Positions 14,069 through 40,726 of a DNA stretch of 64,000 bases are shown here, piece by piece; position 1 is the first letter of the stretch, and every line of letters begins with the position of its first letter. Both the position numbers and the translations under genes were made by a program. The DNA lies in contig JASLKK010000001.1 of assembly GCA_030747595.1 (NCBI GenBank), forward strand, positions 242,133 to 306,132. Reading direction: 5' to 3'. The notes under the pieces were generated by a model. It ran no database searches. It was not told the origin of the DNA and saw nothing but the letters and a program-made list of their open reading frames with translations. This DNA comes from Acidimicrobiales bacterium (lineage in GTDB: Bacteria > Actinomycetota > Acidimicrobiia > Acidimicrobiales > MedAcidi-G1).

Positions 14069-14105
14069 TAGTGGACTTGTTCTTGACTGATCCATCGTCT
14101 TAGCG

Positions 14106-19774: not shown

Positions 19775-22700
19775 GTGGATCGGGGTCGCGCCAGTAGTCT
19801 CGGCGGCACCGTGGATGCCGCACCTTCCCCCGTCAGCGGTCAGCCCAGCCCCGCCGCAGGAGTTACTCCGACCCCCCGGGCGTCGTCGGCCCGGGTACTG
19901 GCCGTGATGGTCGTGGCCGACGAGGCACCGGCGCTCGAGGCGACGCTGACTGGTCTGGCCTCTCAGGACCATCCCCGGACCGACATGCTGGTTGTCGACG
20001 TCCGTCGCGACGGAGACGGTTCGGGCCCATCGCTCGTGGAACGGGTGGGGTTGATCGCACCGTCGTCTCTGGTCGTTCAGGCGCCCGGGGTGCGCGGCGG
20101 TGGCCCGGCGGTGTCGGCCGGTCTCCGGGCGTGGGCGACGGCCCACCCGACGGCGTCCGATCCGCGCTTCCTCCTCTTCGTTCCGGGACCGGTCGTTCTC
20201 GGGGATACCGCGGTGCGTCGCCTGGTGGAGCGAGCCGTGGAGGCCAATGCCGCGGTGGTCGGGCCCAAGGTCATCGGTCCGGACGGGGTGCTCGAGGAGA
20301 TGGGTTGGTGGTTTGACGCCCTCGGTTCGCCGGTGCCCGTGGTCCCCGATCCCGAATTCGACCAGGGTCAGCACGACGACTACCTCCAGCCCGAAGCGGT
20401 GGCCGGTGCAGCGTGGATGGTGCGTGCCGACCTGTTCGCCGAGCTGGGTGGCTTCGATCCCGAGGGGGTAGACGGCACGGCCCACCTGGGGTTCTGCCAA
20501 CGGGCCGGTTCTGCCGGAGCGTCGGTGCTGGTGGTCCCGTCGGCGGTCGCCCGACGGGTCGGCGCCCCCGAAGCGGTACGGCACCCTCCGGAACTCGTCC
20601 GGTCGAGGTTCCGGCTCCGACAGGCTTTGGCCGCACCTCTCGGTCGACTGGCCGTGCTGGTCCCCGTGCTGGCGGCGGCGACGGTGGTCGGGGCCCTGTA
20701 TGGCATGGCCACCGGCCGGCTACGGCATGCCCGTGGGTTGCTCGCCGCCTGGACCTGGAACCTCCGCCGCATCGGCTCGGCCCGACGACTCGCTGGGGCT
20801 GGCCCGGCCGGTCGGGGCTCGACTAGCGCGGGGTATCAGGGTCAGCGGGCCTCGTGGTGGTTGGCGTTCCGACGGGTAGCCACCGGGCGGGATCTGGCTG
20901 GAGACGACGACCGGTCCGAAGGGCTTCGGCGGCTGAATGGCGCCTTCGGGGCGGTGTTCGGCCCGGGCGGGTTGGCCATGATGATCGCCGCAGTGGTTCT
21001 GGGCTTCGGTTCTCGTTCTCTGGTGACCGACGGGATGCCGGTCGTCGGCCGCCTCCAGCGGCTACCGGAGGCACCGGGAGCCCTGGTGGACTCGTGGTGG
21101 GCCGGTTGGCGATCCACGGGGATGGGGGCCTCGGGGTCAGGGCCTGATGGTCTGGCCCTCGTCGGTCTGCTGGTCGACCGGTGGCCGGGTTCGCCGGATT
21201 CCGCGTGGACCGTCCTGATCCTCGGTGCGTTCGCCGTGGGGGCGCTTGGCGTCTGGCGCCTCGTACGCCCGGTGGGCGGCGGCCGGTCACGCGCCGTTGC
21301 CGTGCTGGTATATCTGGCGGTTCCGATTCCCTACGACGCACTTCGCGTCGGACGCCTGGCCCCTCTGGCCGCCTATGCCGTCCTGCCCTGGTTGGCTCGC
21401 CGACTGGCCGGAGCCCAGGCCATGGCTCCCTACGGCGTTCGGGGCGGCGATCCAGGCCCAGGCACCCGTCTGAGGGGCCTGTGGGCCGACGTGGTGATGA
21501 CCGGCCTGGCCCTGGCCGCAGTAGTCGCCGTGGATCCAGTCCTGTTGGTTCCTGCCTGCCTGATCGTCGTGGGGTTGGCGGCCGGCACGGTGCTGTCAGG
21601 GAGCCTCGATGGGCTGGTTCGGCTGACGATGGTGGTCGGCGGTGGGACGATGTTGGCTGCCGTGGTCCACCTGCCGGCGGCCGTAGTCGTCGCGGGACGC
21701 GACGGTGCAGGTTGGAGCGGTTGGTGGGGATCGGCATCGGGCGGCGGTTGGGAGGCGACGGGATCGATCGGCCTCTCCGGGGTTCTGGCCCTGGCGCCGG
21801 GAGCCGACGGGCCGACAGCGGTCACAGGGTTGTTCGTCCTTCCGCTGTTGGCCCTCTGTACGGCACGGGGACGGCACCTCTCGGTGGTCGTCCGAGCCTG
21901 GTTCGTGGCCGCTGCAGGGGCTGTGGTGCTGGTATCAGTGGACCAGGGTTGGCTAGGGGTCGAAGATTCGTTCCTCCGGTCGGTGGATCCGGCGGTCCTC
22001 CTCGTGCCGGTGGCCCTCGGCCTTGCCTGGGTATCGGCAGCCGGGGTGGCCGGGCTGGGTGCCGACCTGGCCCACCTGGCCGCACAGGTCCACGTGGGTC
22101 GAATGGCCCGGGTGGTTCGCAACGGGCTGCTAGGAGCAGTGGTGATCAGCCTGGCCATCGGGGCGTTGCCGGTCCTGACCGGTTCGTTCGCCGGCGACTG
22201 GGGAGTGCCGCGTGCCGATCTGACGGTGGCGCTGCCCGGGGCCGGGGCCCGTCTGGCTGATGGTGACACGGTGCCCGGTGGGGATGCCCGTGTCCTGTGG
22301 ATCGGGGATCCACTCGTGCTTCCGGCAGCGGGAATCCCGCTTTCGTGGAGCGATCGTTCGTCCGGCGTGCCGTCGGATCGATTCGACCGCCTGGCGCTTG
22401 CCGTGACCGACGGGCGACCGGACCTGTCTGACCAGTGGTCGCCGGGTGAGACGACCGCGATGGTGGCGTTGCGAGATGCCGTGGGTTCCGCGCTTGACGG
22501 TGCCACCCACCGACTGGGGGCCGATCTGGGCCGATGGGGGGTGGCCCGGGTGGTGGTCGTCGAGCGATCGGCCCCGGTCCCCGGCCCGGGCGTCGAGCGA
22601 CCGGTACCCGGCCGTCTCACCGAAGTGCTGGCCCGACAACTCGACCTGGAGCGCGTCGAGGCGGTGAACCGGTCGGTGACCGTGTATCGCAACACAGCGG

Positions 22701-23086
22701 TAGAGGCCCCGTTCTCGGTGGTTCGGGACCGGAACCGGCGGGTTGTCCCCGCTGGGGTGACCCGCCGTTCGCTGACCCGGTGGGTGGTCGAGGTTCCGGC
22801 GGACGGCGCCCTGCGTTGGATGGTGGGTCCCGACGACCGCTGGGAAGTCGGGGTCGACGGGCAGCCGGCGACGGTACTGGCGCCCGACGCGGACCATGGA
22901 GTACCGGGGCGGCCATCGGTCAGGGTGGCCACCGGGAGCATGGCCACGTTCGAGGTCGACGATGACGGGCTAGCCCGGCGTCGCCAGATCCAACTGGTAC
23001 TGGTCGCCGTGTTGGTGCTGCTGGCCAGTTGGGCTCGCACGTCCCGGGACTCGAAGCGACGACAGCAGCGGGCGGGGATCCGATGA
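19775..23086 (+). CDS. Giant glycosyltransferase family 2 protein fused to a large polytopic membrane domain and a C-terminal extracytoplasmic region
   Basis: 1103-aa ORF with a GTG start (the alternative GTG at 19811 is in frame). The GT2 core spans roughly aa 40-290 (RVLAVMVVADEAPALEATLTGLASQDHPRTDMLVVDV; GAAWMVRADLFAELGGFDPEG). After it come many hydrophobic helices rich in Ala/Leu/Val/Gly, then a final TM segment (IQLVLVAVLVLLASWA). Confidence 0.8.
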   Translation: MDRGRASSLGGTVDAAPSPVSGQPSPAAGVTPTPRASSARVLAVMVVADEAPALEATLTGLASQDHPRTDMLVVDVRRDGDGSGPSLVERVGLIAPSSLVVQAPGVRGGGPAVSAGLRAWATAHPTASDPRFLLFVPGPVVLGDTAVRRLVERAVEANAAVVGPKVIGPDGVLEEMGWWFDALGSPVPVVPDPEFDQGQHDDYLQPEAVAGAAWMVRADLFAELGGFDPEGVDGTAHLGFCQRAGSAGASVLVVPSAVARRVGAPEAVRHPPELVRSRFRLRQALAAPLGRLAVLVPVLAAATVVGALYGMATGRLRHARGLLAAWTWNLRRIGSARRLAGAGPAGRGSTSAGYQGQRASWWLAFRRVATGRDLAGDDDRSEGLRRLNGAFGAVFGPGGLAMMIAAVVLGFGSRSLVTDGMPVVGRLQRLPEAPGALVDSWWAGWRSTGMGASGSGPDGLALVGLLVDRWPGSPDSAWTVLILGAFAVGALGVWRLVRPVGGGRSRAVAVLVYLAVPIPYDALRVGRLAPLAAYAVLPWLARRLAGAQAMAPYGVRGGDPGPGTRLRGLWADVVMTGLALAAVVAVDPVLLVPACLIVVGLAAGTVLSGSLDGLVRLTMVVGGGTMLAAVVHLPAAVVVAGRDGAGWSGWWGSASGGGWEATGSIGLSGVLALAPGADGPTAVTGLFVLPLLALCTARGRHLSVVVRAWFVAAAGAVVLVSVDQGWLGVEDSFLRSVDPAVLLVPVALGLAWVSAAGVAGLGADLAHLAAQVHVGRMARVVRNGLLGAVVISLAIGALPVLTGSFAGDWGVPRADLTVALPGAGARLADGDTVPGGDARVLWIGDPLVLPAAGIPLSWSDRSSGVPSDRFDRLALAVTDGRPDLSDQWSPGETTAMVALRDAVGSALDGATHRLGADLGRWGVARVVVVERSAPVPGPGVERPVPGRLTEVLARQLDLERVEAVNRSVTVYRNTAVEAPFSVVRDRNRRVVPAGVTRRSLTRWVVEVPADGALRWMVGPDDRWEVGVDGQPATVLAPDADHGVPGRPSVRVATGSMATFEVDDDGLARRRQIQLVLVAVLVLLASWARTSRDSKRRQQRAGIR

Positions 23087-24567
23087 ACGCCACCCGGGGT
23101 CCGGCCATCCTGGTGCTGGCTGCCATGACGGCTGCGGCGGCCGCGCTCTCTTCCGGACCGGTCGAGGTGTCAGGCGCCGAGGCCCGCCCTGAGGCCCGAG
23201 CCGCCACGACCCTCGACAGTTCCTCGACGGCCCTCTGGTTCTGTACCGGGCCGACCGCTGAACTGGACGGGATCGATGAGCGGACCGTCGAGGTGGTGGG
23301 GATCTCGGCTTCACCCACCGAGGGTCGGGTGACGGTGGTGGACGAAGCCGGTCGGGCCGTGGAGCGGGCCTTCAGGATCGATCCGGGAGACCGCCTCAGG
23401 ATCTCGCCCGGCCAGTTCGTCTCCGGGGCGATGTTCGCCGGTGTCACCGTCGAGGTCAGGGGTGGTGCCGCCGTGGTAGGCCAGACGGTGGCCGGTCCGG
23501 ACGGAGCGGATCGTCGGCCATGCACGACCAGGGCTTCTGATACCTGGGTGGTGCCCTGGTCGACCACGGCCCGGCCCGGAAATCGTGCCTGGGTGCTGCT
23601 CCACAATCCGTTCCGAGCCGCAGCGGTGGCCGATCTACGGTTCGTCGGCGACATCGGTCGCCGCGAGACTTTGGACTCCCAGGGCGTCGTGGTGCCCGGC
23701 CGTTCCATTGTGGCCTACGACGTGACGGAGCGGATCGCCGATTCCGCGGTCGTTTCGGCCACCATCGACGTCCGCGTGGGTCGGGTGGTGGTTACTCGAC
23801 TCCAGGCGTCGGACGGGTCGGGCCCCCTGGCCACCCGGGGTCTGGACCTGGCTCCCGGGGTGCCGGAGCTCGCCACCCGGGCATTCATTCCCGGGGTCGG
23901 CACGGGAGCGGTGTCGACCGGAAGCCCGGGTGCCGGTACGTCGGTGGTGGTCGTCAACACGGGCGTGGAGGCCGTTGAGGCCGAGGTGGTGGTCCGGACC
24001 GGTGAAGAGGTGACCGGCCTGGAGCCGTGGCGTCTGGTGCTGAGGGCCGGCCAGCGCCACGTGGTGGACCTAGATGCCGGTCGTCTCGAGGGGGCTGACG
24101 CCTTCGGGGTGGAAGTGAGGACGCTGGACGGTCGCCCGATCGCCGCTTCGGTGGTGCAGCGGTTCGGAGGTGACGGTGTCTCAGAGGCCAGTAGTTCAGT
24201 AGAGGGCGGCCTGGCGGTACGGCCGGCGGCTGTCGTGGCGGCTCGAGGGTGGGTGGTGGATCTCAATGATCGGTACGGGGCCACCGCTGATGTCCTCGCC
24301 GTCATGAATCCAGCCAGCGAGGGAATCGCCACCATCGAGGTGAAGGTTCTGGCCGGGACAGCACCGGCTGGTGTGGCGCGTTCGGTGGAGTTGGCGCCCG
24401 GGACGCAGGTCTCGTTCGATCTGGCGGGCGGACCACCGGCGGTTCTGGCCGTGGAGTCCACGGCGCCGGTCATTGTCTCTATCCACAGCAGGACAGGTGA
24501 GGGAGCAACCGCTTCTTTCGCAGTGGCGGTCGCCGGGACCGAGGCCCGGCCCGTTCCCAGCAACTGA
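23083..24567 (+). CDS. Secreted/anchored beta-rich protein, DUF5719-like
   Basis: The ATG at 23083 overlaps the upstream stop (ATGA). N-terminal signal/anchor (AILVLAAMTAAAAALSS). The remainder is repetitive and Val/Gly/Ala-rich with beta-strand character. The DUF5719 assignment is from memory of the conserved pairing with the giant GT2. Confidence 0.6.
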   Translation: MNATRGPAILVLAAMTAAAAALSSGPVEVSGAEARPEARAATTLDSSSTALWFCTGPTAELDGIDERTVEVVGISASPTEGRVTVVDEAGRAVERAFRIDPGDRLRISPGQFVSGAMFAGVTVEVRGGAAVVGQTVAGPDGADRRPCTTRASDTWVVPWSTTARPGNRAWVLLHNPFRAAAVADLRFVGDIGRRETLDSQGVVVPGRSIVAYDVTERIADSAVVSATIDVRVGRVVVTRLQASDGSGPLATRGLDLAPGVPELATRAFIPGVGTGAVSTGSPGAGTSVVVVNTGVEAVEAEVVVRTGEEVTGLEPWRLVLRAGQRHVVDLDAGRLEGADAFGVEVRTLDGRPIAASVVQRFGGDGVSEASSSVEGGLAVRPAAVVAARGWVVDLNDRYGATADVLAVMNPASEGIATIEVKVLAGTAPAGVARSVELAPGTQVSFDLAGGPPAVLAVESTAPVIVSIHSRTGEGATASFAVAVAGTEARPVPSN

Positions 24568-24647: not shown

Positions 24648-25094
24648 TCAGGAGCCGGCGCTGCAGCCGTCGGGCGTGGAGCCCGGATTTCGTAGCTCAG
24701 CCAACGAGCCCCAGAGGTGGGTGGCGCTGACCGGGCCCATGTGGTGGTCGCGGACCACGCCGAGGGCATCGGCGATCAGCACCATGGGAACAGCGTCGAC
24801 GGCATACCGGTCGTGGATGGCCCGGTGGGTTCCGACCTCCACCTCTTGAACGGCGACCTCGGCGCTAGCCAGGGGAGAAGCGGTGGCCATCACCGATTCG
24901 CACGAGTCGCAGGTAGCCGAGGTGAACACGGCGACCAGCCAGGCCACGTCGGGTTGCTCAAAGTCGTCGCGGTCGAGTTGTTCGGGAACCGTCCAGCCGG
25001 TCCGGACCGGTGCATCGGGTCGACGTCGTTGCAGCAGCCGTGCGGCGATGGCGGCAGCTGTGGCCACCACGACGAGCAGGATCAGGCGGTCCAT
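24648..25094 (-). CDS. Small membrane-anchored thioredoxin-like protein (CxxC)
   Basis: 148-aa ORF with high GC3. N-terminal TM helix (LILLVVVATAAAIAARLL) and a CDSC motif in the context VAVFTSATCDSCESV. The function is a guess. Confidence 0.5.
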   Translation of the reverse strand: MDRLILLVVVATAAAIAARLLQRRRPDAPVRTGWTVPEQLDRDDFEQPDVAWLVAVFTSATCDSCESVMATASPLASAEVAVQEVEVGTHRAIHDRYAVDAVPMVLIADALGVVRDHHMGPVSATHLWGSLAELRNPGSTPDGCSAGS

Positions 25095-25120: not shown

Positions 25121-27091
<1,971 letters not shown>

Positions 27092-27171
27092 CGTACGGGG
27101 GCCCTGCGACGCTCCGACCGTCGGCGGCCCGTTGGTGGCCCGTCGGTGACCGGTAGTGGCCCGTCGGTAGG

Positions 27172-27915
27172 GTGCGCCCGATGGAGGGCCCGACGGAAGG
27201 TGAGGTGGTCGCGTCGTCGCGTCCGTCCGTCGCCTGGGGTCTGGGCCACGTGGCGGTCGGATGGGTGGTCGGCCTGATAGCCACCGTGGCGGCCCTGGGC
27301 GTGGTCGTGGCCATCGCGGGTGACGAAACGGCCAAGGATCCCAGTCTGGCCGTGGGAGCGCTCATCCAGGGTGCCCTGTACGTGGGGTTGGTCGGGGTCC
27401 CGGCGTGGCTGGTGATGGTCCGCGGGGTCAGGTGGGCCGACTTCGGCTGGGCCGGGCCAGGCCGGGGCGGTCACTGGCGAGACGCCTGGCACGGCCTGAT
27501 CATCGGCGTGGTGGCTCAGGTGGCAGTCGTCCCGGCCATCTACCTCCCGATCCTTTTGCTGACCGACGACCTGGATATCTCGGGGCCGGCCCGTGAACTG
27601 GTCGACCGGGCCGACGGGCTCGGCATTGTCCTGCTGGTCCTGATGGTGGTGGTGCTGGCCCCCGTGGCCGAGGAACTTTTCTTCCGCGGGATGGCGCTTC
27701 GGGCGTTGGAGGCACGGATGGCCCGACGGATTGCACTGGTCGTCTCGGCTTCCTTCTTCGGACTGACCCACTTCCAACTCCTGCAGCTTCCGGCGCTGAT
27801 CATGATCGGGTTGGTGTGCGGATGGTTGGCCCAACGCGACGGGCGGCTGGGCCGGGCCGTATGGGCCCACGTGGGCTTCAACGCCACCACGATCGTGATC
27901 CTGTTGGCCGGATGA
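27172..27915 (+). CDS. CPBP family intramembrane glutamic endopeptidase (CAAX protease-like)
   Basis: Polytopic. Motif 1 APVAEELFFRG and motif 2 FGLTHF, plus a later HVGFN. Confidence 0.85.
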   Translation: MRPMEGPTEGEVVASSRPSVAWGLGHVAVGWVVGLIATVAALGVVVAIAGDETAKDPSLAVGALIQGALYVGLVGVPAWLVMVRGVRWADFGWAGPGRGGHWRDAWHGLIIGVVAQVAVVPAIYLPILLLTDDLDISGPARELVDRADGLGIVLLVLMVVVLAPVAEELFFRGMALRALEARMARRIALVVSASFFGLTHFQLLQLPALIMIGLVCGWLAQRDGRLGRAVWAHVGFNATTIVILLAG

Positions 27916-30533
27916 CCGAGATGACCGAGACGCCAATCCCGGAAGGATCGCCCGGAGGACCGGGAGAGGCCCCGGACAGCGGGCCCGACGAGACGGCCAG
28001 CCCCGTGGCGGCCCTGATCCGACGGGTACCGCTGACCCGCTGGGTGGACCTCCTCATCGTCCTCGGAGGCGTCTGGTTCGTGCTCTGGGTGGTGAATCCG
28101 GACGGCGTACTGTTCACCCGCTCTACCCCCACCGGCGGCGACCTCGGCGCCCACGTGTGGGGGCCGGCATTCCTCCGCGACGAGTTGCTGCCCCGGTTTC
28201 GCCTGACCGGATGGACACCTGACTGGTACGCCGGATTCCCCGCCTACCACTTCTACATGGTGGTTCCCATGCTGCTGGTGGTGGCCGTCGACGTGGGGTT
28301 GGCCACCCCGTTGCTGGCCGTGGTGCTGCCCGTCCTGCTGGCCGCCGGGGTGGTGGTGCACCGACACCGCCTGCCGGGCTGGCCGGTGCGGCTGGGCCTG
28401 CTGGCCGCGCTGGTGGTCCTCGTCGTGCCGGTCCACTACGGCATGGCCGTCAAGTGGGTCACCGTGGCCGGCCTGGTGGTCATGCCGGTGGCCGGATGGG
28501 CGGCCGGTCGACTGGCCGGGCTCCCGTTCCCGGGTCCCGCGCTCACGTCGGTAGCCACCCTCCCGTTCCTGTTCGACCAGTCGTTCAACATCATGGGCGG
28601 AAACCTGATGTCGACCATGGCGGGCGAATTCGCCTACGCCCTCGCCATGGCGGCCTGCCTCGTGTACCTGGGCCTCCTAGTTCGGGGCATGGAGACCGGT
28701 CGGGGCCGCGCTCCGGCAGCCGCCGTACTTGCGTTGACCGGACTGTGCCATCTGCTGGTGGCGTTCTTCGCCCTGGTGGCGTCGCTGGTTGCCTTTGCTC
28801 TGCGTCCCAGTCGACAGGCCCTGCGGTGGTTGGTGACCACCGGTCTGGTGTCCGGGCTCTGCGCGGCGTTCTGGGTTCTGCCGTTCTGGTGGCGTCGGGA
28901 CCACCTCAACGACATGGCGTGGCACAAACTCACCCGCTTCCGGTCGTACCTCTGGGACCGGGGTGACCTGGCCGCCGACTTCCTGAGCAATGATCCACCG
29001 CTCCAGCCGGCCATCGTGCTGGCCGTCGTGGGCCTGGTGCTGTCGGTGGCCTTCCGCCGACGCTTCGGATTCGTCCTGGCCGGATCGGCGGTTCTGCTCG
29101 GACTGGCCTTCGTGCACCTGCCGGAGGGCCGCCTCTACAACGGCCGGATCCTGCCCGCCTACTACCTGAGCATCTACCTGCTGGCCGCGGTCGCCCTGTC
29201 GGAGGGACTGCGCCTCGCGGGCCGACTACTCGACGGAGTCCGACGATCTGCCACCGGACGGCCGGGCCGTCTGGTGGCCGGGGGAGGGGCCGTCGCCGTG
29301 TTCCTGGCGGTGGTGATCCTGCTCGGGATGCCCCTGCGGGTCATGCCTGGTGGGTCCATGGACGGCAACACCTACCGGTGGATGGGCATGGAATCGACCG
29401 AACTGAACCTCGGTCGGCCGTGGGTCCGCTGGAACTTCGAGGGCTACGAGGCCCGGGTCGGCGACTCGTCGGGTGGTGGCTGGGAGGAACAGCGGGAGTT
29501 GGCCTCCACCATGGAGAACCTGGCCGACGAGGTGGGTTGCGGCCGTCTCATGTGGGAGTACAGCAGCGACCTGGTTCGGTACGGGACGCCCATGGCCCTG
29601 ATGCTCCTGCCTCACTGGACCGACGGTTGCATCGGTTCCATGGAAGGCCTCTACTTCGAGGCTTCGACCACCACGCCGTACCACTTTCTCGTCCAGTCGG
29701 AACTCTCGGAGGGGCCGTCGCGAGCCCAGCGTGGCCTTCCGTACCGGGGCTTTGACCTAGACGCCGGCGCGGACCACCTCCGGCAACTCGGCGTACGGTG
29801 GTACTCGGCCTTCTCGGAGCGGGCCGTGCGCGAAGCGAGGGACCACCCGGGCCTGGTCGAGAAGGCGTCCAGCGGGCCGTGGACCATCTTCGAGGTGGAG
29901 GGCGCCGAAGCCGTGGTGGCCCTCGACGTGGAGCCGGCGGTGTTCACCGACGTGGATCACGAGAGCTGGCTGGATCCGTCGGTGGAGGTCTTCCAGCAGG
30001 GTTCGACCGCTGTTCCGCGAACGGTCGGTGGCCCCGGGTCGTGGCAACGAGTGGAAGCCGGAACCGAACCGGAACGTCGGCCGCTGCCCGCTGTCGAGGT
30101 CACAAACGTCGTGAGCGGGGTGGACTCGGTGTCATTTCGCGTCGACCGGGTCGGCGTACCGGTGCTAGTCCGCACGTCCTATTTCCCCAACTGGAAGGTG
30201 GAGGGTGCCGACGGTCCGTGGCGGACCACGCCGAACCTGATGGTGGTGGTCCCGACGTCCGAAGACGTCCGTCTGACCTACGGTCGAACGCCGGTCGCTG
30301 TGGTCTCGGTCCTGTTGACCCGCGTCGGACTACTGGCCCTGGTGTCTCTGGCCCGCCGGTCGGCCGTTCCTTCTGAACCGGCAACACCGGAGAACGCATT
30401 GTTCGACGTAGCGGCCGCTGGCCCCGACGGTGACCGGCGGCTGGACCGATGGGTGGATCGCCGGGTAGCCAACGAGCCTTCGGAGGAACCGGAGAGTTCG
30501 GAGTCGGCGGCCGGGGAGCACGGCGAGTCATGA
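27912..30533 (+). CDS. Large polytopic membrane protein with a roughly 350-aa extracytoplasmic C-terminal domain; GT-C-like putative glycosyltransferase
   Basis: The ATG at 27912 overlaps the CPBP stop (ATGA). About 12 or more hydrophobic helices. An early loop reads TPTGGDLGAHVWGP...TPDWYAGFPAYHFYMV. The C-terminal soluble part contains WNFEGYE and LPHWTDGCIGSMEGLYFE. The fold assignment is an inference. Confidence 0.7.
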   Translation: MTEMTETPIPEGSPGGPGEAPDSGPDETASPVAALIRRVPLTRWVDLLIVLGGVWFVLWVVNPDGVLFTRSTPTGGDLGAHVWGPAFLRDELLPRFRLTGWTPDWYAGFPAYHFYMVVPMLLVVAVDVGLATPLLAVVLPVLLAAGVVVHRHRLPGWPVRLGLLAALVVLVVPVHYGMAVKWVTVAGLVVMPVAGWAAGRLAGLPFPGPALTSVATLPFLFDQSFNIMGGNLMSTMAGEFAYALAMAACLVYLGLLVRGMETGRGRAPAAAVLALTGLCHLLVAFFALVASLVAFALRPSRQALRWLVTTGLVSGLCAAFWVLPFWWRRDHLNDMAWHKLTRFRSYLWDRGDLAADFLSNDPPLQPAIVLAVVGLVLSVAFRRRFGFVLAGSAVLLGLAFVHLPEGRLYNGRILPAYYLSIYLLAAVALSEGLRLAGRLLDGVRRSATGRPGRLVAGGGAVAVFLAVVILLGMPLRVMPGGSMDGNTYRWMGMESTELNLGRPWVRWNFEGYEARVGDSSGGGWEEQRELASTMENLADEVGCGRLMWEYSSDLVRYGTPMALMLLPHWTDGCIGSMEGLYFEASTTTPYHFLVQSELSEGPSRAQRGLPYRGFDLDAGADHLRQLGVRWYSAFSERAVREARDHPGLVEKASSGPWTIFEVEGAEAVVALDVEPAVFTDVDHESWLDPSVEVFQQGSTAVPRTVGGPGSWQRVEAGTEPERRPLPAVEVTNVVSGVDSVSFRVDRVGVPVLVRTSYFPNWKVEGADGPWRTTPNLMVVVPTSEDVRLTYGRTPVAVVSVLLTRVGLLALVSLARRSAVPSEPATPENALFDVAAAGPDGDRRLDRWVDRRVANEPSEEPESSESAAGEHGES

Positions 30534-33127
30534 GGGAACGTCTCCGTCGGTTTGCGGTCGTCGGCCTGGTGGCAACGACGATCGACGTCGGCCTGGCCGT
30601 CCTCCTGCTGGGAGCTGGTTGGTCTCCGTGGTCGGCCGATGTCGTGGCTCTGGGTCTGGCCGCCGTGGCAGCCCGCCTGCTGCACCGGTCGGTGACGCTT
30701 CGCGACGACCCGTACGCCCGCTGGATCCGCCTCAAGCGGGTCTTCGTCACGGTCGTCGTGGTGGCCGGGCTGGTCGATCTCGCCACCCTCACGGCCGGTC
30801 GAACCCTGTTGGACGGAACTGACGCCGGTGGGTCCGAAGATTGGCGGATCGACCTCGCTGCCAAGCTGGTCGCCGTACTGGTGGCCGGCCTGGTGCGAGC
30901 GGTGGCCTACCGGGCGTTCCTGTTCCGCGTGATCCGGCGGGAACAGGACCATCCGTCGGAACGACCTCCTCCGGCCGGTGACGTGCGGGTGACCGTCGTG
31001 CTTCCCGCCTACCGGGAGTCCGACCGGATCGCCGAGACGGTCGCCCGGGTGCGAACTGAGCTAGCCGTCGCGCTCGCCGAGGCCGATGGTCAGACCGAGG
31101 TGGTGGTCAATGACATCGAGGTAGTAGTGGTCGACGACGGATCGCCGGACGACACCGCGACGGTTGCCGAGGCAGCCGGAGCAGATCGGGTGGTCCGTTT
31201 GGATCGCAACCAGGGCAAGGGCGCAGCCGTGAGGGCTGGGGTCGCCGTCGCATCGGGTCGCACCGTGGTGTTCACCGACGCCGACCTGGCATACGGGCCC
31301 GCTCAGGCCGCGGCACTGGTGGCCCGGGTCGAAGAGGGATACGACCTCGTGGTGGGTAGCCGGCGACACACCGACACCACCACTCTGGTGCGGGCCGGCC
31401 GCCTTCGCGAGGTGGGTGGCCGGTTGGTGAACCTGACCACCCACGCATTGCTGCTAGGGCAGTACCGCGACACACAGTGTGGTCTCAAGGCCTTCCGGGC
31501 CGACGTCGCCCAGCCGCTCTTCGAGGCGTCGGTGCTGGGTGGCTTCGCCTTCGACGTCGAGTTGTTCCACCTGGCCGAGCGGTGGCGCCTCACCCTGGCC
31601 GAAGTGCCCGTAGAGGTCGAGAACTCGGAGCGGTCCACCGTCCGGGCGGTCCGCGACGGCTTACGCCTGGTCGCCGACCTCGTCCGCGTCCGCCAGCGGG
31701 CCCGACGCGGCGACTACCCCGAGGCGCCGACCTTTCGACCGCCGGGCAACAAGACCCGACTTTCAGAGACCCCTATTTTCAAGGCATACGACATCCGTGG
31801 ACGGGTGCCTGAGGAGTGGGACGAGTCGGTGGCCGAAGCCATCGGCCGGGGGTTCGCCAACCTGGTCCGACGTCGGGAACCCGAGAGCACTCAGGTCGTC
31901 GTGGGCCGCGACATGCGTCCCAGCGGCGTGTCCCTGGGAGCGGCCCTCATCCAGGGGATCACTGGTGAGGGCCTCGACGTCGTCGATGTGGGCCTGGCAT
32001 CCACCGACCTCGTCTACTTCGCGTCAGGCCACCTCTCGTCGCCCGCCGTGGTGCTCACAGCCAGCCACAATCCAGCCGGCTACAACGGCATGAAGTGCTG
32101 CCTCTCGGGCGCCGCCCCGCTGGGCTACGACAACGGCCTGAACGAAGTGGAGGCCGACGTCCTGGTCGGAACTCCACGAGGTGAACCGACCGGTGGCCCG
32201 CCGGGCAGCGTCCGCACCCTGGACATGCTCGACGTCTTCGTCGAGCATGTCCGGTCGTTCGCCGACCTCTCGGCACTACGACCGCTACATCTCGTGGTCG
32301 ATACGGCTAACGGCATGGGAGGCCTGGTCGTTCCGGCGGTGTTGGACGGCCTCCCGTTCACGGTGGACCACCTCTATCCGGAACTGGACGGGACCTTCCC
32401 CAACCATCCCGCCGATCCGATCCAGCCGGAAAACCTCCGCGACCTCCAGGCCCGGGTGCTGGCCACCGGCGCCGATCTGGGACTGGCCTTCGACGGTGAC
32501 GCCGACCGGGTCTTCCTGGTCGACGAACAGGCCCGCCCGATCTCGGGGTCGACAACCACCGCACTGGTGGCCCGGGGGGTCCTACGGCGTGAACCCGGTG
32601 CGACCATCCTCCACAACCTCATCTGCTCGAAGGCCGTGCCCGAAGTGGTCGCCGAGGAGGGAGGGGTCGCCCTACGGACCCGGGTCGGCCACTCTCTCAT
32701 CAAGCAGGCCATGGCCACCGAGGGGGCGGCCTTTGCCGGCGAACACTCCGGGCACTACTACTTCCGCGACAACTTCCGGGCCGACAGCGGGATCATTGCC
32801 GTCCTTGTCGTCCTCGAGGCCCTCTCCACCCACGGCGGACCGATGAGCGACCTGGTCGCCCCCCTGGAGAGGTATGGGGCATCTGGCGAGCGCAACACCG
32901 AAGTGGATGACCCAAAGGAGGTCATCGAACGAGTGGCCGCCCACTACCGCACCGAGGCCCCCGAGGCCGACCAGGACCGCCTCGACGGGTTGACCGTCGA
33001 CTTCGGCGACTGGTGGTTCAACCTGCGACCCTCCAACACCGAACCGCTCCTACGTCTCAACGTTGAGGCGGCCAACGCCGAGGCGTGCGCGGTCCGGGTC
33101 GACGAGGTCCAAAGCCTGTTTACCTAG
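30530..33127 (+). CDS. Tri-domain fusion: GtrA-like membrane module + GT2 polyprenyl-phosphate glycosyltransferase + phosphomannomutase/phosphoglucomutase
   Basis: The ATG at 30530 overlaps the upstream stop (ATGA). aa 1-140: RRFAVVGLVATTIDVGLAVLLL plus 3 further helices. aa 150-400: VTVVLPAYRESDRIAETV, VVVVDDGSPDDT, VFTDADLAY, RDTQCGLKAF. aa 416-865: IFKAYDIRG, TASHNPAGYNGMK, AFDGDADRVFLVDE, GEHSGHYYF, RPSNTEPLLRL. There is no stop between the domains. Confidence 0.85.
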   Translation: MRERLRRFAVVGLVATTIDVGLAVLLLGAGWSPWSADVVALGLAAVAARLLHRSVTLRDDPYARWIRLKRVFVTVVVVAGLVDLATLTAGRTLLDGTDAGGSEDWRIDLAAKLVAVLVAGLVRAVAYRAFLFRVIRREQDHPSERPPPAGDVRVTVVLPAYRESDRIAETVARVRTELAVALAEADGQTEVVVNDIEVVVVDDGSPDDTATVAEAAGADRVVRLDRNQGKGAAVRAGVAVASGRTVVFTDADLAYGPAQAAALVARVEEGYDLVVGSRRHTDTTTLVRAGRLREVGGRLVNLTTHALLLGQYRDTQCGLKAFRADVAQPLFEASVLGGFAFDVELFHLAERWRLTLAEVPVEVENSERSTVRAVRDGLRLVADLVRVRQRARRGDYPEAPTFRPPGNKTRLSETPIFKAYDIRGRVPEEWDESVAEAIGRGFANLVRRREPESTQVVVGRDMRPSGVSLGAALIQGITGEGLDVVDVGLASTDLVYFASGHLSSPAVVLTASHNPAGYNGMKCCLSGAAPLGYDNGLNEVEADVLVGTPRGEPTGGPPGSVRTLDMLDVFVEHVRSFADLSALRPLHLVVDTANGMGGLVVPAVLDGLPFTVDHLYPELDGTFPNHPADPIQPENLRDLQARVLATGADLGLAFDGDADRVFLVDEQARPISGSTTTALVARGVLRREPGATILHNLICSKAVPEVVAEEGGVALRTRVGHSLIKQAMATEGAAFAGEHSGHYYFRDNFRADSGIIAVLVVLEALSTHGGPMSDLVAPLERYGASGERNTEVDDPKEVIERVAAHYRTEAPEADQDRLDGLTVDFGDWWFNLRPSNTEPLLRLNVEAANAEACAVRVDEVQSLFT

Positions 33128-33224
33128 CGGCATCCCGGTGAACGGAACCCTTCCAACAGTCGCCGGGCGGGTGTCACCGCTGTCGCGACCAATAGCCTGA
33201 GGCAATGATGTCTGGCCTGACGAA

Positions 33225-33461
33225 ATGACGCTCGATCCGAAGCTCCTAGAGATCCTTGCCTGCCCGGAGGACAAGGGCCCGCTGCTCTGGTTCGCCGACG
33301 AGGACGCGTTGTACAACCCCCGACTGCAGCGCCGGTACGCGGTACGGGACGGCATCCCGGTGATGCTGGTCGACGAGGCCGAACAGGTCGACGACGCCGA
33401 GCACGACCGGCTCACCGCTCTGGCGGCCGCCGAGGGCATCCAGCCGACCTTCGGGGACTGA
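33225..33461 (+). CDS. Trm112 family small protein
   Basis: 78 aa. LLEILACPEDKGPL ... YAVRDGIPVMLVDEA, typical of the Trm112/DUF343 family (the variant without the four-Cys zinc site). Confidence 0.8.
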   Translation: MTLDPKLLEILACPEDKGPLLWFADEDALYNPRLQRRYAVRDGIPVMLVDEAEQVDDAEHDRLTALAAAEGIQPTFGD

Positions 33462-33527
33462 CCTCCCCGGTCACGACCTGGCCCCGTCTGCACGCCCTCT
33501 TCTCTACGGCCTGTCCGGAAGCGACCC

Positions 33528-34658
33528 ATGGACCTGCTCGACGGTGTGATCCGGTCCTACGACTGGGGATCCACCACCGCGCTGGCCGACCTGCGTGGCG
33601 TCGCTCCCAGTGGCGTGCCGGAGGCCGAGTTGTGGTTCGGCGCCCACCCGTCTGGCCCCTCGACCTTCCGCGGCGACGGTCGCGACGTGACGGCGGACGA
33701 GATGCCGTTCCTGGTCAAGGTGCTGGCCGTGGAGCGGCCGCTCTCTCTCCAGGCCCATCCCGACCAACAGGCGGCCGTGGTCGGACACCGGCGAGAGGAC
33801 GAAGCCGGACTGGCGACCGAAGATCCTCAGCGGTGCTTTCCCGACGCCTGTGCCAAACCGGAGATGGTGTGTGCAATCGGGCGGTTCGAGACCCTCTGCG
33901 GGTTCCGGCCGGTCGACGAGGCGGTGGCCGCGGGGACGGCGCTGGGGCTACCGGAAGCGGTCGTCGACGCCATCCGGCGGGTCGACTGGCCAACCGTGGT
34001 GGCTGCCGTCCTGGCGTCCACGCCCGATGACCTAGCGGACCTTCTCTCGGCCGCCCACGGGATCGCAACCAGCGCGCCGTCCAGTGAGGCGCACCGCCCT
34101 GCCGCCGAGATGGTTCTGCGGCTGGCCGAACTGCATCCGGGAGACCCCGCGCTGTTGCTCGTCCCGCTGCTACGTCATCTGGTGCTAGCCGACGGTGATG
34201 CCCTGTTCGTGGCTCCCGGTGTCCTGCACGCCCACCTCTCGGGACTGGCTGTCGAGGTCATGGCCGTCTCCGACGACGTGGTCCGGGCCGGGCTAACCAG
34301 CAAGCACGTGGACCCGACCGCTCTGGCCGAAGTGCTCCGCTCCGACCGGGTCGACGTCGTGGAGTCACCGACCGGCCCGGTCCACCGGTACGCAGCCGGC
34401 CAGACGGAGGACCAGATCAGCGAGGTCGGCGCCGTTTTATGGCGGCTGGCCGGCGATGGGCTCGACGTCGACCTGTCCGACCGTCGTGGCCCCGAACTGG
34501 TGATCTGCACGCAGGGCACAGCGCTGATCGGTACGCCGGGCGACGGTCCCGATCTTGTCGTCGGGAGCGGTGAGGCAACCTGGATCGGACCGGATGACGG
34601 CCCGGCCCGGATGAGGGTGGACGGCACCGTCCATCGGGTGACCGTGGGGGAGGGTTGA
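33528..34658 (+). CDS. manA: Mannose-6-phosphate isomerase, class I
   Basis: YDWGS, ELWFGAHP, PFLVKVLAVERPLSLQAHPD, and VAPGVLHAH. Confidence 0.9.
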   Translation: MDLLDGVIRSYDWGSTTALADLRGVAPSGVPEAELWFGAHPSGPSTFRGDGRDVTADEMPFLVKVLAVERPLSLQAHPDQQAAVVGHRREDEAGLATEDPQRCFPDACAKPEMVCAIGRFETLCGFRPVDEAVAAGTALGLPEAVVDAIRRVDWPTVVAAVLASTPDDLADLLSAAHGIATSAPSSEAHRPAAEMVLRLAELHPGDPALLLVPLLRHLVLADGDALFVAPGVLHAHLSGLAVEVMAVSDDVVRAGLTSKHVDPTALAEVLRSDRVDVVESPTGPVHRYAAGQTEDQISEVGAVLWRLAGDGLDVDLSDRRGPELVICTQGTALIGTPGDGPDLVVGSGEATWIGPDDGPARMRVDGTVHRVTVGEG

Positions 34659-38065: not shown

Positions 38066-38746
38066 ATGCTGGACGGCAGTTGGCGCACCGTGGTGGATCG
38101 CGGTCTCACGCCCATTGGTCAGAGCCTGCAACGGGCCGGGATCTCAGCGGACGTCGTCACGGTCGTCGGCATCCTCATGGCGTCCGGGGCCTCGGTGGCC
38201 ATTGGCATGGGCAACTTGCGTCTCGGATTCATGCTGCTGGTGCTGACCGGGGTGCCCGATGCACTCGATGGGGCAGTGGCCAAGGCCGCAGGAACGGCGT
38301 CATCCCGCGGCGCCTACTTCGATTCCGTGGCCGACCGGCTCACCGACGCCCTCCTCTTCGGTGGCGTGGCGTGGCATCTGGCCACCGTTCGCACCGACCG
38401 GATGATGATGTTGCCGGTGGCCATCATGGCCACGGCCATGTTCATCTCCTACCAGCGAGCCAAGGCCGAGTCGCTGGGCTACGACGCCAAGGGCGGGCTC
38501 ATGGAGCGCGCCGAGCGGTTCATCGTCCTGGCCTTCGGTCTGCTCTTCTTCGAGATCCTCGTTCCCGTGCTCTGGGTGATGCTGGCGCTCAGCCTGGTTA
38601 CCGCGGTGCAGCGGTTCGTGAAGGTGTGGCGTCAGGCCACCGCAGACCGGGAACTCCCGGCAGGCGGTTGGCCCGGCCGGCGCCGGCAGCTGCGGATGGA
38701 GCGTCGTCGACGTCACGGCGCCCCCACTCGGCCGAATCGCCACTGA
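38066..38746 (+). CDS. pgsA1: CDP-alcohol phosphatidyltransferase, phosphatidylinositol-phosphate synthase-like
   Basis: CDP-OH-P motif DALDGAVAKAAGTASSRGAYFDSVADRLTD (D-x2-DG-x2-AR...G-x3-D-x3-D). Lies immediately upstream of the patA-like and pimA genes, as in mycobacteria. Confidence 0.88.
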   Translation: MLDGSWRTVVDRGLTPIGQSLQRAGISADVVTVVGILMASGASVAIGMGNLRLGFMLLVLTGVPDALDGAVAKAAGTASSRGAYFDSVADRLTDALLFGGVAWHLATVRTDRMMMLPVAIMATAMFISYQRAKAESLGYDAKGGLMERAERFIVLAFGLLFFEILVPVLWVMLALSLVTAVQRFVKVWRQATADRELPAGGWPGRRRQLRMERRRRHGAPTRPNRH

Positions 38747-38762
38747 CGCCTCCACCTTCCGG

Positions 38763-39668
38763 TTGCTCATGACCCGGGGAATCGTCAATGCCTTCCGACT
38801 TGCTTCGGTGGTCGCGCGCGTGGTCCCTCCGGCGATCTCGTTGCCCGTTGCCCGGATGGTGGGTCGTATCGCCGGCTACCTCGACAGGGACCGTCGTCGA
38901 CTCGTTGAACGCAACCTGCGTCGGGTTCGTGGGCCGGAACTGACCGGCCGCCAACTGCGGCGATCAGTGGACCTGGTGTTCGCCTCGTACGCCGACTACT
39001 ACCTCCAGAGTTTCCGGCTGCCGTCAATGAGCGCCGAGGAGATTGTGTCCGGCTTCACCGAGGAGGGCTACGAGCGGATCGCCGAGGGGCTCGAGGCCGG
39101 TAACGGCGTCATCATGGCCATGCCACACCTCGGTAGCTGGGAGTGGGCTGCCCACTGGTTGACCCTCCACCACGGCGTTCCCGTGGGGTGCGTGGTCGAG
39201 TCGCTCGAGCCGCCGGAACTCTTCGACTGGTACCGGAGCTTCCGGGCGTCCCTTGGGATGAAGGTGGTGGGCCTCGGCCCGGGTGCCGGCACCGAGACCA
39301 TGGCCATGCTCCGCGAGAACCGGGCGGTGTGCCTGCCCAGTGACCGGCATGTCGGTGGCTCGGGCGTGGCGGTCGAGTTCTTCGGCGAGGTCACGATGCT
39401 GCCCGCCGGTCCGGCCACCCTGGCGCTGCGCACCGGGGCCGTCCTGTTGCCCATTGCCATCTACGACCACCCGGGCGGCTGCCACGGCGTGGTTCGCCCA
39501 CCGGTAGCGGCCCAACGCGAAGGTCGGCTACGTGACGATGTGGCCCGGGTGACCCGGGCGCTGGCCGCCGAACTGGAGGTACTGATCGCCGCCGAGCCCG
39601 AGCAGTGGCACCTCCTGCAACCCAACTGGCCGTCAGATCAGGAGGATTCGGCATGCGAATCGGCCTGA
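38763..39668 (+). CDS. patA: LPLAT/HtrB-family acyltransferase, phosphatidylinositol mannoside acyltransferase-like
   Basis: 301-aa ORF (TTG at 38763 or ATG at 38769). Contains MPHLGSWEWA, the HX4D/E-like acyltransferase region. Position between pgsA1 and pimA supports the call. Confidence 0.75.
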   Translation: MLMTRGIVNAFRLASVVARVVPPAISLPVARMVGRIAGYLDRDRRRLVERNLRRVRGPELTGRQLRRSVDLVFASYADYYLQSFRLPSMSAEEIVSGFTEEGYERIAEGLEAGNGVIMAMPHLGSWEWAAHWLTLHHGVPVGCVVESLEPPELFDWYRSFRASLGMKVVGLGPGAGTETMAMLRENRAVCLPSDRHVGGSGVAVEFFGEVTMLPAGPATLALRTGAVLLPIAIYDHPGGCHGVVRPPVAAQREGRLRDDVARVTRALAAELEVLIAAEPEQWHLLQPNWPSDQEDSACESA

Positions 39669-40726
39669 TCTGCCCGTACAGCCTGACGGTGCCCGGGGGA
39701 GTCCAGGGGCAGGTCCTGGGTCTGGCCCGGGTGCTGCGGGCCGCAGGCCATCCCACCCGCGTGCTGGGCCCCTGCGACGGTCCGCCGCCCGACGCCGGTG
39801 TCACCCCGCTGGGAGACAGCCTTCCAACGGCGGCCAACGGTTCGATGGCTCCCATTGCCCCGGACGTGTCGTGTGCGCTTCGCACCATTCGGGCGCTGCG
39901 TGATGAGGAATTCGACGTGCTCCACCTGCACGAGCCGTTGGCCCCCGGGCCGACCACCACGGCTCTCTTTCTGGCCCAGTCGCCCATGGTGGGGACATTT
40001 CACGCCGCAGGCGGGAGCCTCGCCTACGACCTCCTGAACCGCCCTGTCCGTTGGCTCAGCAGGCGAATGGACCGGGTGTTCGCCGTGTCTGATGATGCGG
40101 CCGCCATGGCTCGGGACTCACTGGGCGGGGATTACGAGGTCCTGTTCAACGGGGTGGAGGTCCGTCGGAGCCGGGAGGTCGCTCCGTGGCCCACCGAAGG
40201 CCCTACCGTCTTCTTCATCGGACGTCACGAGCCCCGCAAGGGCTTGGCGGTACTGCTGGACGCCATGGCCGGTCTAGGCGCCGACGTTCGCCTCTGGGTG
40301 GCCGGCGACGGTCCCGATACCGACGAGCTCCGAGCCCGGGTGGCCGGCGACGCCCGGGTCCAGTGGCTGGGCCGAATCTCCGACGAAGAGCGAACGGCGA
40401 GGATCCGCGGCGCGGACGTCTTCTGCGCGCCGTCGCTGCGTGGCGAATCGTTCGGCGTGGTGCTGCTCGAGGGGATGGCATGTGAGACCCCGGTGGTAGC
40501 CAGCGACATCCCGGGCTACGCCAAGGTGGCGCGTGGTGGTGACGATGCGCTGCTAGTCCCCGCAGGCGATGCCGAGGCGCTCGGCGCGGCCATCGCCAAG
40601 GTCCTCGCGGAACCGGCCCTCGCCACCCGGTTGGTGGTCAGCGGGCGGGAGCGAGCAGAGGAATTCTCGATGCATCGGCTGGCCGACAAGTACCTAGAGG
40701 CCTATTCCTCGGTGGCCGGCGCGTAA
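39653..40726 (+). CDS. pimA: Phosphatidyl-myo-inositol alpha-mannosyltransferase (GT4)
   Basis: Start at the ATG at 39653. MRIGLICPYSLTVPGGVQGQVLGLARVLRAAGH closely resembles the mycobacterial PimA N-terminus. C-terminal ESFGVVLLEGMACETPVVASD. Confidence 0.88.
   Translation: MRIGLICPYSLTVPGGVQGQVLGLARVLRAAGHPTRVLGPCDGPPPDAGVTPLGDSLPTAANGSMAPIAPDVSCALRTIRALRDEEFDVLHLHEPLAPGPTTTALFLAQSPMVGTFHAAGGSLAYDLLNRPVRWLSRRMDRVFAVSDDAAAMARDSLGGDYEVLFNGVEVRRSREVAPWPTEGPTVFFIGRHEPRKGLAVLLDAMAGLGADVRLWVAGDGPDTDELRARVAGDARVQWLGRISDEERTARIRGADVFCAPSLRGESFGVVLLEGMACETPVVASDIPGYAKVARGGDDALLVPAGDAEALGAAIAKVLAEPALATRLVVSGRERAEEFSMHRLADKYLEAYSSVAGA

Follow-up and report, generated by a model that had tools for sequence, protein, structure and literature searches.

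A translationally coupled CPBP, GT-C-like, and GtrA-GT2-phosphomannomutase gene trio as a probable extracytoplasmic glycosylation module of Acidimicrobiia

The present analysis concerns three consecutive genes in a 64,000-nucleotide stretch of a marine Acidimicrobiales genome (assembly GCA_030747595.1, contig JASLKK010000001.1; hereafter the window), which encode a CPBP intramembrane protease, an 873-residue membrane protein that we call MID, and a protein that joins a GtrA-type membrane domain, a glycosyltransferase family 2 (GT2) domain, and a phosphomannomutase (PMM). These genes, referred to below as the trio, probably constitute an extracytoplasmic glycosylation module of the three-component type represented by the Gtr, Arn, CsbB-YfhO, and PpgS-Rv3779 systems, placed within a conserved actinobacterial mannose-metabolism locus. 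A three-component module had been proposed from a sequence-only reading of the window, and the proposal is largely supported by the GT-C fold of MID, the polyprenyl-phosphate type of the GT2, the GtrA domain, the conserved gene order, and gene fusions among the partners. The three-component glycosylation system is defined in PMC11127046; in the window, the GT2 carries a DXD motif and a GT-C-fold transferase is encoded together with the synthase.

Gene structure, the fold of MID, and the synthase protein

The trio lies on the forward (+) strand, with the CPBP gene at 27172/27181-27915, the MID gene at 27912-30533, and the GtrA-GT2-PMM gene at 30530-33127. Successive genes overlap, as first read, in the four letters ATGA at 27912-27915 (ggATGAccgag) and 30530-30533 (gtcATGAggg), where the ATG is in frame with the downstream open reading frame and the TGA closes the upstream one. 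Translated from the ATG at 27912, MID has 873 residues and is identical to the called protein P0001 of an Acidimicrobiales metagenome-assembled genome; the third gene, from the ATG at 30530, encodes 865 residues. Public gene calls on three contigs with an identical MID give the same boundaries, with the minor difference that the CPBP gene is started at ATG 27181 (244 residues) and not at GTG 27172. Four-base overlaps are frequent in GC-rich operons, so the overlaps of the trio mean little on their own. Terminator-like sites inside the trio are at background level (four found, 2.3 expected), and a scan of positions 26900-33700 returned no promoter-like sites, such a scan being uninformative for an actinobacterium this rich in GC.

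MID was modelled with AlphaFold2 from a 34-sequence alignment (pLDDT 78, pTM 0.82). The model has a helical transmembrane bundle at residues ~39-475, an extracytoplasmic soluble domain at residues ~476-793 (29337-30290, +) whose secondary structure is mixed alpha/beta followed by beta-sandwich character, and a C-terminal transmembrane anchor at residues 794-817, recognised from hydropathy and from the modelled helix, which is followed by a disordered cytoplasmic tail of ~55 residues (anchor and tail, 30291-30533, +). The first predicted transmembrane helix spans residues 41-61, and the motif GGDLGAHVWGP (residues 75-85; 28134-28166, +) occupies the first extracytoplasmic loop, between the first and second helices of the model. 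The many N-terminal helices, the loop motif, and the soluble domain had all been described previously; the C-terminal helix and its tail had been missed. An inward-facing C-terminus fits the observation that other lineages fuse a cytoplasmic GT2 or PMM after helix 794-817.

In a Foldseek comparison of the model with the PDB, the nine best matches were all GT-C enzymes (AftD three times, AftA twice, DPY19, PglB, ArnT, and AglB), with E-values from 5.5e-8 for AftD to 2e-2, and unrelated transporters followed at E ≥0.09. The Foldseek probability was 1.00 for AftD, AftA, DPY19, PglB, and ArnT, and the GT-C-like fold that had been anticipated for the middle protein was thereby recovered. Several results weigh against this assignment: MID has no match in Pfam, NCBIfam, or the PDB by sequence, whether searched as a single sequence or as a 35-sequence profile, which gave nothing usable; the global TM-scores against GT-C structures are low (0.26-0.47), although modest values are expected for multi-domain proteins at ~12% identity; and the catalytic loop (residues 70-115) is modelled at a pLDDT of only ~40-67. 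The soluble domain, modelled alone (pLDDT 70), had no significant match in the PDB, the best being AftD at E 0.03 and the next being short beta-sandwich pieces of glycosidases; it holds many invariant residues.

A profile search with MID against 1.8 billion representative proteins recovered 3591 representative relatives, 1353 of them at E <1e-30, and the named members of the family all belong to Acidimicrobiia or Actinomycetota. Homologues at 36-46% identity, which match the MID profile at E ~1e-158, score above the 26.4-bit gathering threshold of PF10131 (P0150, 41.1 bits; P0220, 39.3 bits). The MID of the window had no match to PF10131 even at E 0.01, so that its relationship to the family is transitive only; since its relatives pass the threshold, we place it as a divergent branch of PF10131 that lies beyond the reach of the current model. 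PF10131 (PTPS_related) is a member of the GT-C clan CL0111 whose function is not known (PMC7801869), and in the literature on the function of PF10131/COG5617 we found no characterised member.

Residue conservation was scored in two sets, of 35 and 43 sequences, with identities as low as 32%. Residues G75, G76, and D77 of the first-loop motif never vary, and at least 90% of the sequences have H81; K181, E239, H280, N410, and R412 are invariant in the transmembrane region, as is G806 in the C-terminal helix. The conserved acidic loop residue for which the first interpretation of the locus had looked is D77, positioned between the first transmembrane helix and the next. Active GT-C enzymes are expected to combine an invariant Asp in the first loop with basic residues in the core, as MID does, and D77 is a candidate catalytic base, the roles proposed here for individual residues being putative.

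MID might instead have a GT-C-like fold but no transferase activity, and serve as a scaffold, as an exporter or chaperone of polymers, or as a non-catalytic subunit in the manner of PIG-U. The lack of any family-level annotation, the soluble domain with no recognisable carbohydrate-binding fold, and the low confidence of the modelled catalytic loop would all suit such a role. We consider it very improbable given that the invariant loop Asp and the invariant Lys, His, and Arg of the transmembrane core follow the pattern of active GT-C enzymes, and that fusion to a lipid-sugar synthase, described below, would chiefly be of use to an enzyme whose substrate is the product of that synthase.

The third gene had been read as a union of GtrA, GT2, and PMM, and Pfam returned GtrA_DPMS_TM, Glycos_transf_2, and four PGM_PMM domains. 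The GtrA/DPMS-type transmembrane domain covers residues 7-132 (30548-30925, +; PF04138, 36.7 bits against a cut-off of 26.1) and is followed by a GT2 domain of the polyprenyl-phosphate glycosyltransferase type (30986-31693, +; PF00535, 86.5 bits) with DDGS and DAD (TDAD) motifs. The phosphomannomutase/phosphoglucomutase domain (residues 414-865; 31769-33127, +) is in frame with the GT2, comprises all four component domains (PF02878, PF02879, PF02880, and PF00408), and carries the motifs TASHNP, DGDADR, GEHSGH, and RPSNTEP of the active-site loops (catalytic Ser, Mg, sugar, and phosphate); against NF007088, it scores 580.6 bits, just below the cut-off of 618. The best NCBIfam matches of the GT2 are AglJ, PpgS, ArnC, a dolichyl-phosphate hexose transferase, and PgfS, and its best PDB matches are ArnC, GtrB (sll0501), and DPMS. 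Its nearest named or solved relatives are all polyprenyl-phosphate glycosyltransferases.

The single-protein arrangement of GtrA, GT2, and PMM stands for the window but does not generalise, as the GT2-PMM fusion occurs in 11 of 70 genomes, all from the window's own clade, and elsewhere the two are separate, tightly packed genes. An assembly frameshift was considered as the cause of the fusion and rejected, since the fusion is found in 11 independent species genomes and in three contigs of the same sequence. The GtrA domain is more constant, being encoded in the same open reading frame as the GT2 in 66 of the 69 loci that have a downstream GT2. It is missing from MID-GT2 fusions (P0124, P0154, P0166, P0170, and P0235; locus L090), and because it is dropped when the GT2 is fused to MID, the domain may be an anchor or lipid-binding element rather than a proven flippase. 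The pattern suggests that it mainly anchors the GT2 or binds lipid, becoming redundant where the GT2 is tethered to MID, and that it may not be indispensable for flipping. Its loss in these fusions offers a natural experiment on whether flipping, or anchoring alone, requires such a domain.

Linkage of the trio across Acidimicrobiia

Gene neighbourhoods were counted in one genome per species from ~80 Acidimicrobiia species, with the evaluable genomes as denominators. A CPBP gene lies upstream of MID on the same strand in 71 of 73 genomes and keeps the four-base overlap in 23 of these; a GT2 gene lies downstream on the same strand in 69 of 74 (67 with a GtrA-domain match), with the overlap kept in 55 of the 69; and a PMM gene lies downstream on the same strand in all 74. 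The conservation of the three genes as neighbours, on which the sequence-only reading had staked its proposal, thus extends over ~80 Acidimicrobiia genomes, and in other lineages the partners are also fused to one another.

These fusions are stronger evidence of linkage than synteny. Among the 150 best representatives of the family, we found MID-GT2 (five), GT2-MID (one), MID-GtrA-GT2 (one), and MID-PMM (two). Several of the fusion clusters consist of five to seven independently assembled sequences, and one includes a RefSeq protein encoded by a complete Ca. Poriferisodalis genome of 4.4 Mb. Without exception, the cytoplasmic domains of these fusions are attached at an end of MID that is predicted to face the cytoplasm, which supports a topology with the soluble domain of MID outside.

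Other features of the loci count against a dedicated module. The synteny data for MID all come from one class, Acidimicrobiia, so the conserved order may be partly inherited rather than selected. A same-strand adjacent GT2 is absent from at least five species genomes and from several further loci, the loci L084, L088, and L089 having the order CPBP-MID-PMM with no GT2 beside it, and the donor may in such genomes come from a general synthase elsewhere. The order PMM-ManA-SahH is an ancestral actinobacterial arrangement, as in the Rv3255c-Rv3257c locus of M. tuberculosis, and for this reason the adjacency of PMM alone is weak evidence of a functional link.

The rearranged loci that we term class B (L085-L087) have two tandem MID-family genes (of ~1100-1260 and ~520-885 residues), an inverted or diverging PMM, no CPBP, and a 250-residue GT2 on the opposite strand, with two or three YkuD L,D-transpeptidase genes behind it. 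This arrangement suggests a link to peptidoglycan-proximal chemistry. Ca. Poriferisodalis (locus L090) has its MID-GT2 fusion without a CPBP gene. The constant core across all of these loci is MID with PMM, usually joined by GT2.

It could be argued from such variation that the linkage is loose, in that MID would be a GT-C protein inserted beside PMM in an ancestral housekeeping locus, would draw on a general polyprenyl-phosphate mannose pool or on a glycan linked to undecaprenyl diphosphate (in the manner of PglB or WaaL), and would have CPBP and FtsH as unrelated neighbours. The block of PMM, Trm112p, phosphomannose isomerase, and SahH genes is indeed kept regardless of the trio, several lineages have a MID and no adjacent same-strand GT2, CPBP is absent from L085-L087 and L090, and the data are confined to a single class. 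We nonetheless regard loose linkage as unlikely, because independent fusions of MID to GT2 (at either end), to GtrA-GT2, and to PMM recur in separate assemblies, because the MID/GT2 overlap is retained in most of the loci in which it could be scored, and because even the rearranged class-B loci have PMM and GT2 beside MID.

The CPBP gene (27172-27915, +) encodes an Rce1-like, glutamic-type intramembrane protease of 244-247 residues (PF02517, 68.4 bits) in which the motifs EExxxR (VAEELFFRG), FxxxH (FFGLTHF), and HxxxN (AHVGFNA) are all present in the translation, and the catalytic motifs are intact in 73 of 73 orthologues. The co-translated partnership emphasised in the original interpretation is in line with the overlap with MID and with the upstream position in nearly all genomes, but since the gene is missing from the class-B loci and from Ca. 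Poriferisodalis, it is an accessory rather than a part of the core. CPBP is best described as a frequent, translationally coupled accessory of MID loci.

A closer partnership can be imagined in two forms. CPBP and MID might act as one machine, in which the protease would cut a membrane-anchored envelope protein, or the C-terminal anchor of MID itself, and the GT-C protein would glycosylate or glyco-anchor the product; we give this only a slim chance, but if true, it would amount to a new pathway of sorting and glycosylation, peculiar to Acidimicrobiia and fed directly from central metabolism through fused PMM, GT2, and GT-C enzymes. Alternatively, the two might share in protein maturation, with CPBP cleaving a surface protein or propeptide that is anchored in the membrane and MID glycosylating the same protein, by O-mannosylation of the Pmt type or adhesin glycosylation of the Pgf type. 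In favour of this are the intact protease motifs, the conserved upstream position and its retained overlaps, the resemblance of the GT2 to PgfS and AglJ, both from pathways that glycosylate proteins, and the O-mannosylation of proteins from polyprenyl-phosphate mannose in Actinobacteria (PMC5982138). Coupled protein maturation is nevertheless improbable: the loci share no conserved gene that might encode the substrate, some MID-bearing lineages do without CPBP, MID shows neither PMT nor MIR features and finds its best structural match in AftD, an enzyme of glycan elongation, and the LCP gene, the large GT2-like protein with DUF5719, and the class-B YkuD genes point to wall polymers.

Proposed pathway and comparison with known systems

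Under the favoured explanation, that of a three-component-type module, ManA and the PMM domain would provide mannose-1-phosphate in the cytoplasm, from which a ManC-like enzyme would make GDP-mannose. The GT2, held at the membrane by the GtrA/DPMS-type domain, would then move the hexose onto polyprenyl phosphate, and the lipid-linked sugar would be flipped, possibly with the aid of the GtrA-type domain. On the outer face, MID would use the lipid-linked sugar, with D77 as the putative catalytic base and K181, H280, and R412 as putative phosphate ligands, and would transfer it to an acceptor in the envelope that its soluble domain would hold. CPBP would take part, if at all, as a frequent translationally coupled accessory.

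Mannose is the favoured sugar, although we rate this at slightly under an even chance to about even. It is favoured by the PMM, which is always adjacent or fused; by ManA, a class I mannose-6-phosphate isomerase (33528-34658, +; TIGR00218, 160.8 bits against a cut-off of 116.2); by the non-homologous PGI/PMI enzymes that occupy the corresponding slot in other loci; and by two further genes in the window, a ManC-like mannose-1-phosphate guanylyltransferase (11984-13018, +; best NCBIfam match the mycobacterial model NF052502 man1P_GTase_Rv, 273 bits, which is below the cut-off of 440; NTP_transferase and LbH Pfam domains) and the GDP-mannose 4,6-dehydratase Gmd (17721-18761, -; TIGR01472, 450.6 bits against a cut-off of 415). 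Two points tell against mannose: PMM/PGM enzymes also serve glucose, and the sequence of the GT2 does not reveal sugar specificity. Counting against the proposed module as a whole, the ManC-like gene, whose product would supply the step between PMM and GT2, is 15 kb from the trio and is never part of a fusion.

In the clade of the window, the slot after PMM and Trm112p belongs to a type I ManA, and elsewhere a bact-PGI_C (PGI/PMI) gene fills it (L084, 11011-12042; L090, 12717-13778; L091, 10321-11373). This pattern looks like non-orthologous displacement of phosphomannose isomerase.

With respect to the acceptor, a row of three genes begins 5 kb downstream of the trio (38066-40726, +) and encodes a PgsA-type CDP-alcohol phosphatidyltransferase, a lipid A-type acyltransferase, and a GT4, an arrangement that is that of the actinobacterial set pgsA1-patA-pimA for phosphatidylinositol and phosphatidylinositol mannosides (PIM). 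The row implies PIM-like glycolipids in the Acidimicrobiales of the window. Together, the LCP gene, the large GT2-like protein with DUF5719, the class-B YkuD genes, and the PIM genes suggest, if weakly, that the acceptor is a wall glycopolymer or a lipoglycan and not a protein.

The logic of the trio is familiar from known three-component systems. In Gtr O-antigen glucosylation of Shigella and Salmonella, the GtrA flippase, the undecaprenyl-phosphate-glucose synthase GtrB, and a serotype-specific GT-C enzyme are likewise encoded together. The trio differs in that GtrA is built into the GT2 protein instead of being a small protein of its own, in that the GT-C protein is about twice as large and has a 320-residue soluble domain and a C-terminal anchor, and in having a fused or adjacent sugar-phosphate mutase and a coupled CPBP protease; in addition, the locus belongs to the core chromosome of a Gram-positive-type actinobacterium and not to a prophage or an O-antigen island.

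Closer in phylogeny is the mycobacterial PpgS (Rv3631)/Rv3632/Rv3779 system for the galactosamine modification of arabinogalactan, in which a GT2 synthase, a small GtrA-like helper, and a GT-C enzyme decorate a wall polymer on the outside. Like the trio, it is actinobacterial, and PpgS (NF058614) is the second-best NCBIfam match of the GT2 (5e-17); with 62 bits against a cut-off of 370, however, the GT2 is not an orthologue of PpgS, the GT-C families differ, and the sugar is probably mannose here and N-acetylgalactosamine there.

AftD (PDB 6w98, 6wbx), the best structural match of MID, has an N-terminal GT-C bundle, a large extracytoplasmic soluble region, C-terminal transmembrane helices, and both termini in the cytoplasm (bioRxiv 10.1101/2019.12.22.885152). 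MID shares with it the unusual succession of GT-C bundle, soluble region, and C-terminal membrane anchor, but the two are only 13% identical (TM-score 0.26-0.38), and MID is shorter (873 against ~1400 residues), has no recognisable carbohydrate-binding modules, and ends in one C-terminal helix where AftD has five. The donor context also differs, being hexose or mannose for MID and decaprenyl-phosphate arabinose for AftD.

Mannosylation dependent on Ppm1 (PimE, MptA/B, and Pmt) follows the same logic, from GDP-mannose through polyprenyl-phosphate mannose to a GT-C enzyme (PMC3485146, PMC5982138). Unlike those systems, MID has no Pfam match to GT87, PMT, or PMT_2. Ppm1 is also not known to have a GtrA-type domain. 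The DPMS of Pyrococcus (PDB 5mlz) resembles the third gene in joining a GT2 covalently to a GtrA/DPMS-type (GtrA-like, four-helix) transmembrane domain, and the additional PMM domain sets the protein of the window apart. The order is also reversed, as the transmembrane domain is C-terminal in DPMS and N-terminal in the third gene.

Compared with the Gtr, Arn, CsbB-YfhO, and PpgS-Rv3779 systems, the trio is distinguished by an uncharacterised GT-C family, a fused GtrA module, a fused or coupled sugar-phosphate mutase, and a coupled CPBP protease. We found no prior description of such a locus in the literature on CPBP with GT-C proteins or on the envelope of Acidimicrobiia, including lipoglycans. 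These bacteria are abundant in oceans, soils, and wastewater, are mostly uncultured, and have an envelope that is essentially unstudied. The MID locus marks out a GT-C family that spans the class and of which no member has been characterised, and it offers a concrete and testable entry to the building or decoration of their walls or lipoglycans, and working out what MID does would give GT-C proteins of the PF10131 type a first function. Its genetic links are unusually explicit, as they include fusions to synthase and phosphomannomutase across lineages and translational coupling to CPBP.

Flanking genes and further observations

Upstream of the trio are genes for LCP, two GT4s, the ManC-like nucleotidyltransferase, GalE, CofD/FbiB, Gmd, and a second epimerase, and, nearer the trio, a 1059-residue protein coupled to DUF5719, a small CxxC membrane protein, and a divergent FtsH. 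Downstream follow Trm112p-like, ManA, and SahH genes and then the PIM-type cluster, and further on PdxS, YebC, RuvB, QueA, SecDF, RelA, HisS, AspS, AlaS, and YceG. These flanks mirror the Rv3248c-Rv3267 and Rv2582-Rv2612c blocks of M. tuberculosis, with the trio occupying what is presumably the position at which mycobacteria have only pmmA. A mobile-element origin of the trio was rejected in view of the core housekeeping flanks and the even composition of the window (~68-70% GC). No tRNA genes or Rfam families were found in the window, and no paralogues of MID, CPBP, or GT2 elsewhere in it.

The small Trm112p-like gene (33225-33461, +; PF03966) follows PMM in nearly all annotated loci, including L084 and L088-L091, where it has the same position. 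On the other side, FtsH (25121-27091, -; TIGR01241, 771.9 bits) diverges from the CPBP gene, the two starts being 89 bp apart, and nearly all of the ~80 loci have it at the same place and on the same strand; it is thus a conserved neighbour that is not known to be linked to the trio. The divergent FtsH/CPBP pair encodes two membrane proteases, and a shared regulatory region is possible. A small DUF3499 gene is found between FtsH and CPBP in the 43 loci L041-L084 of the more distant clade, whose MID proteins are at most 51% identical to that of the window, and is absent from the window.

The 1059-residue protein (19907-23086, +) has no Pfam or NCBIfam match and its gene overlaps that of DUF5719 (23083-24567, +) by 4 nt; since L089 and L091 have a GT2 of ~1100 residues at this place, it has the look of a highly divergent synthase of the GT2 type that pairs with DUF5719. 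Between DUF5719 and FtsH, positions 24648-25094 (-) encode a 148-residue protein with an N-terminal transmembrane helix and a CxxC motif (TCDSCE), and the gene at the comparable place in L084 has weak thioredoxin matches. A 609-residue open frame with lower GC at third codon positions (0.71) and no family match lies between GalE and the F420 genes (14091-15920, +). In two loci, genes of other GT-C families, DUF2079 and PMT_2, are present within a few kb of the MID locus (L091, 11656-13149, -; L084, 2442-3854, -).

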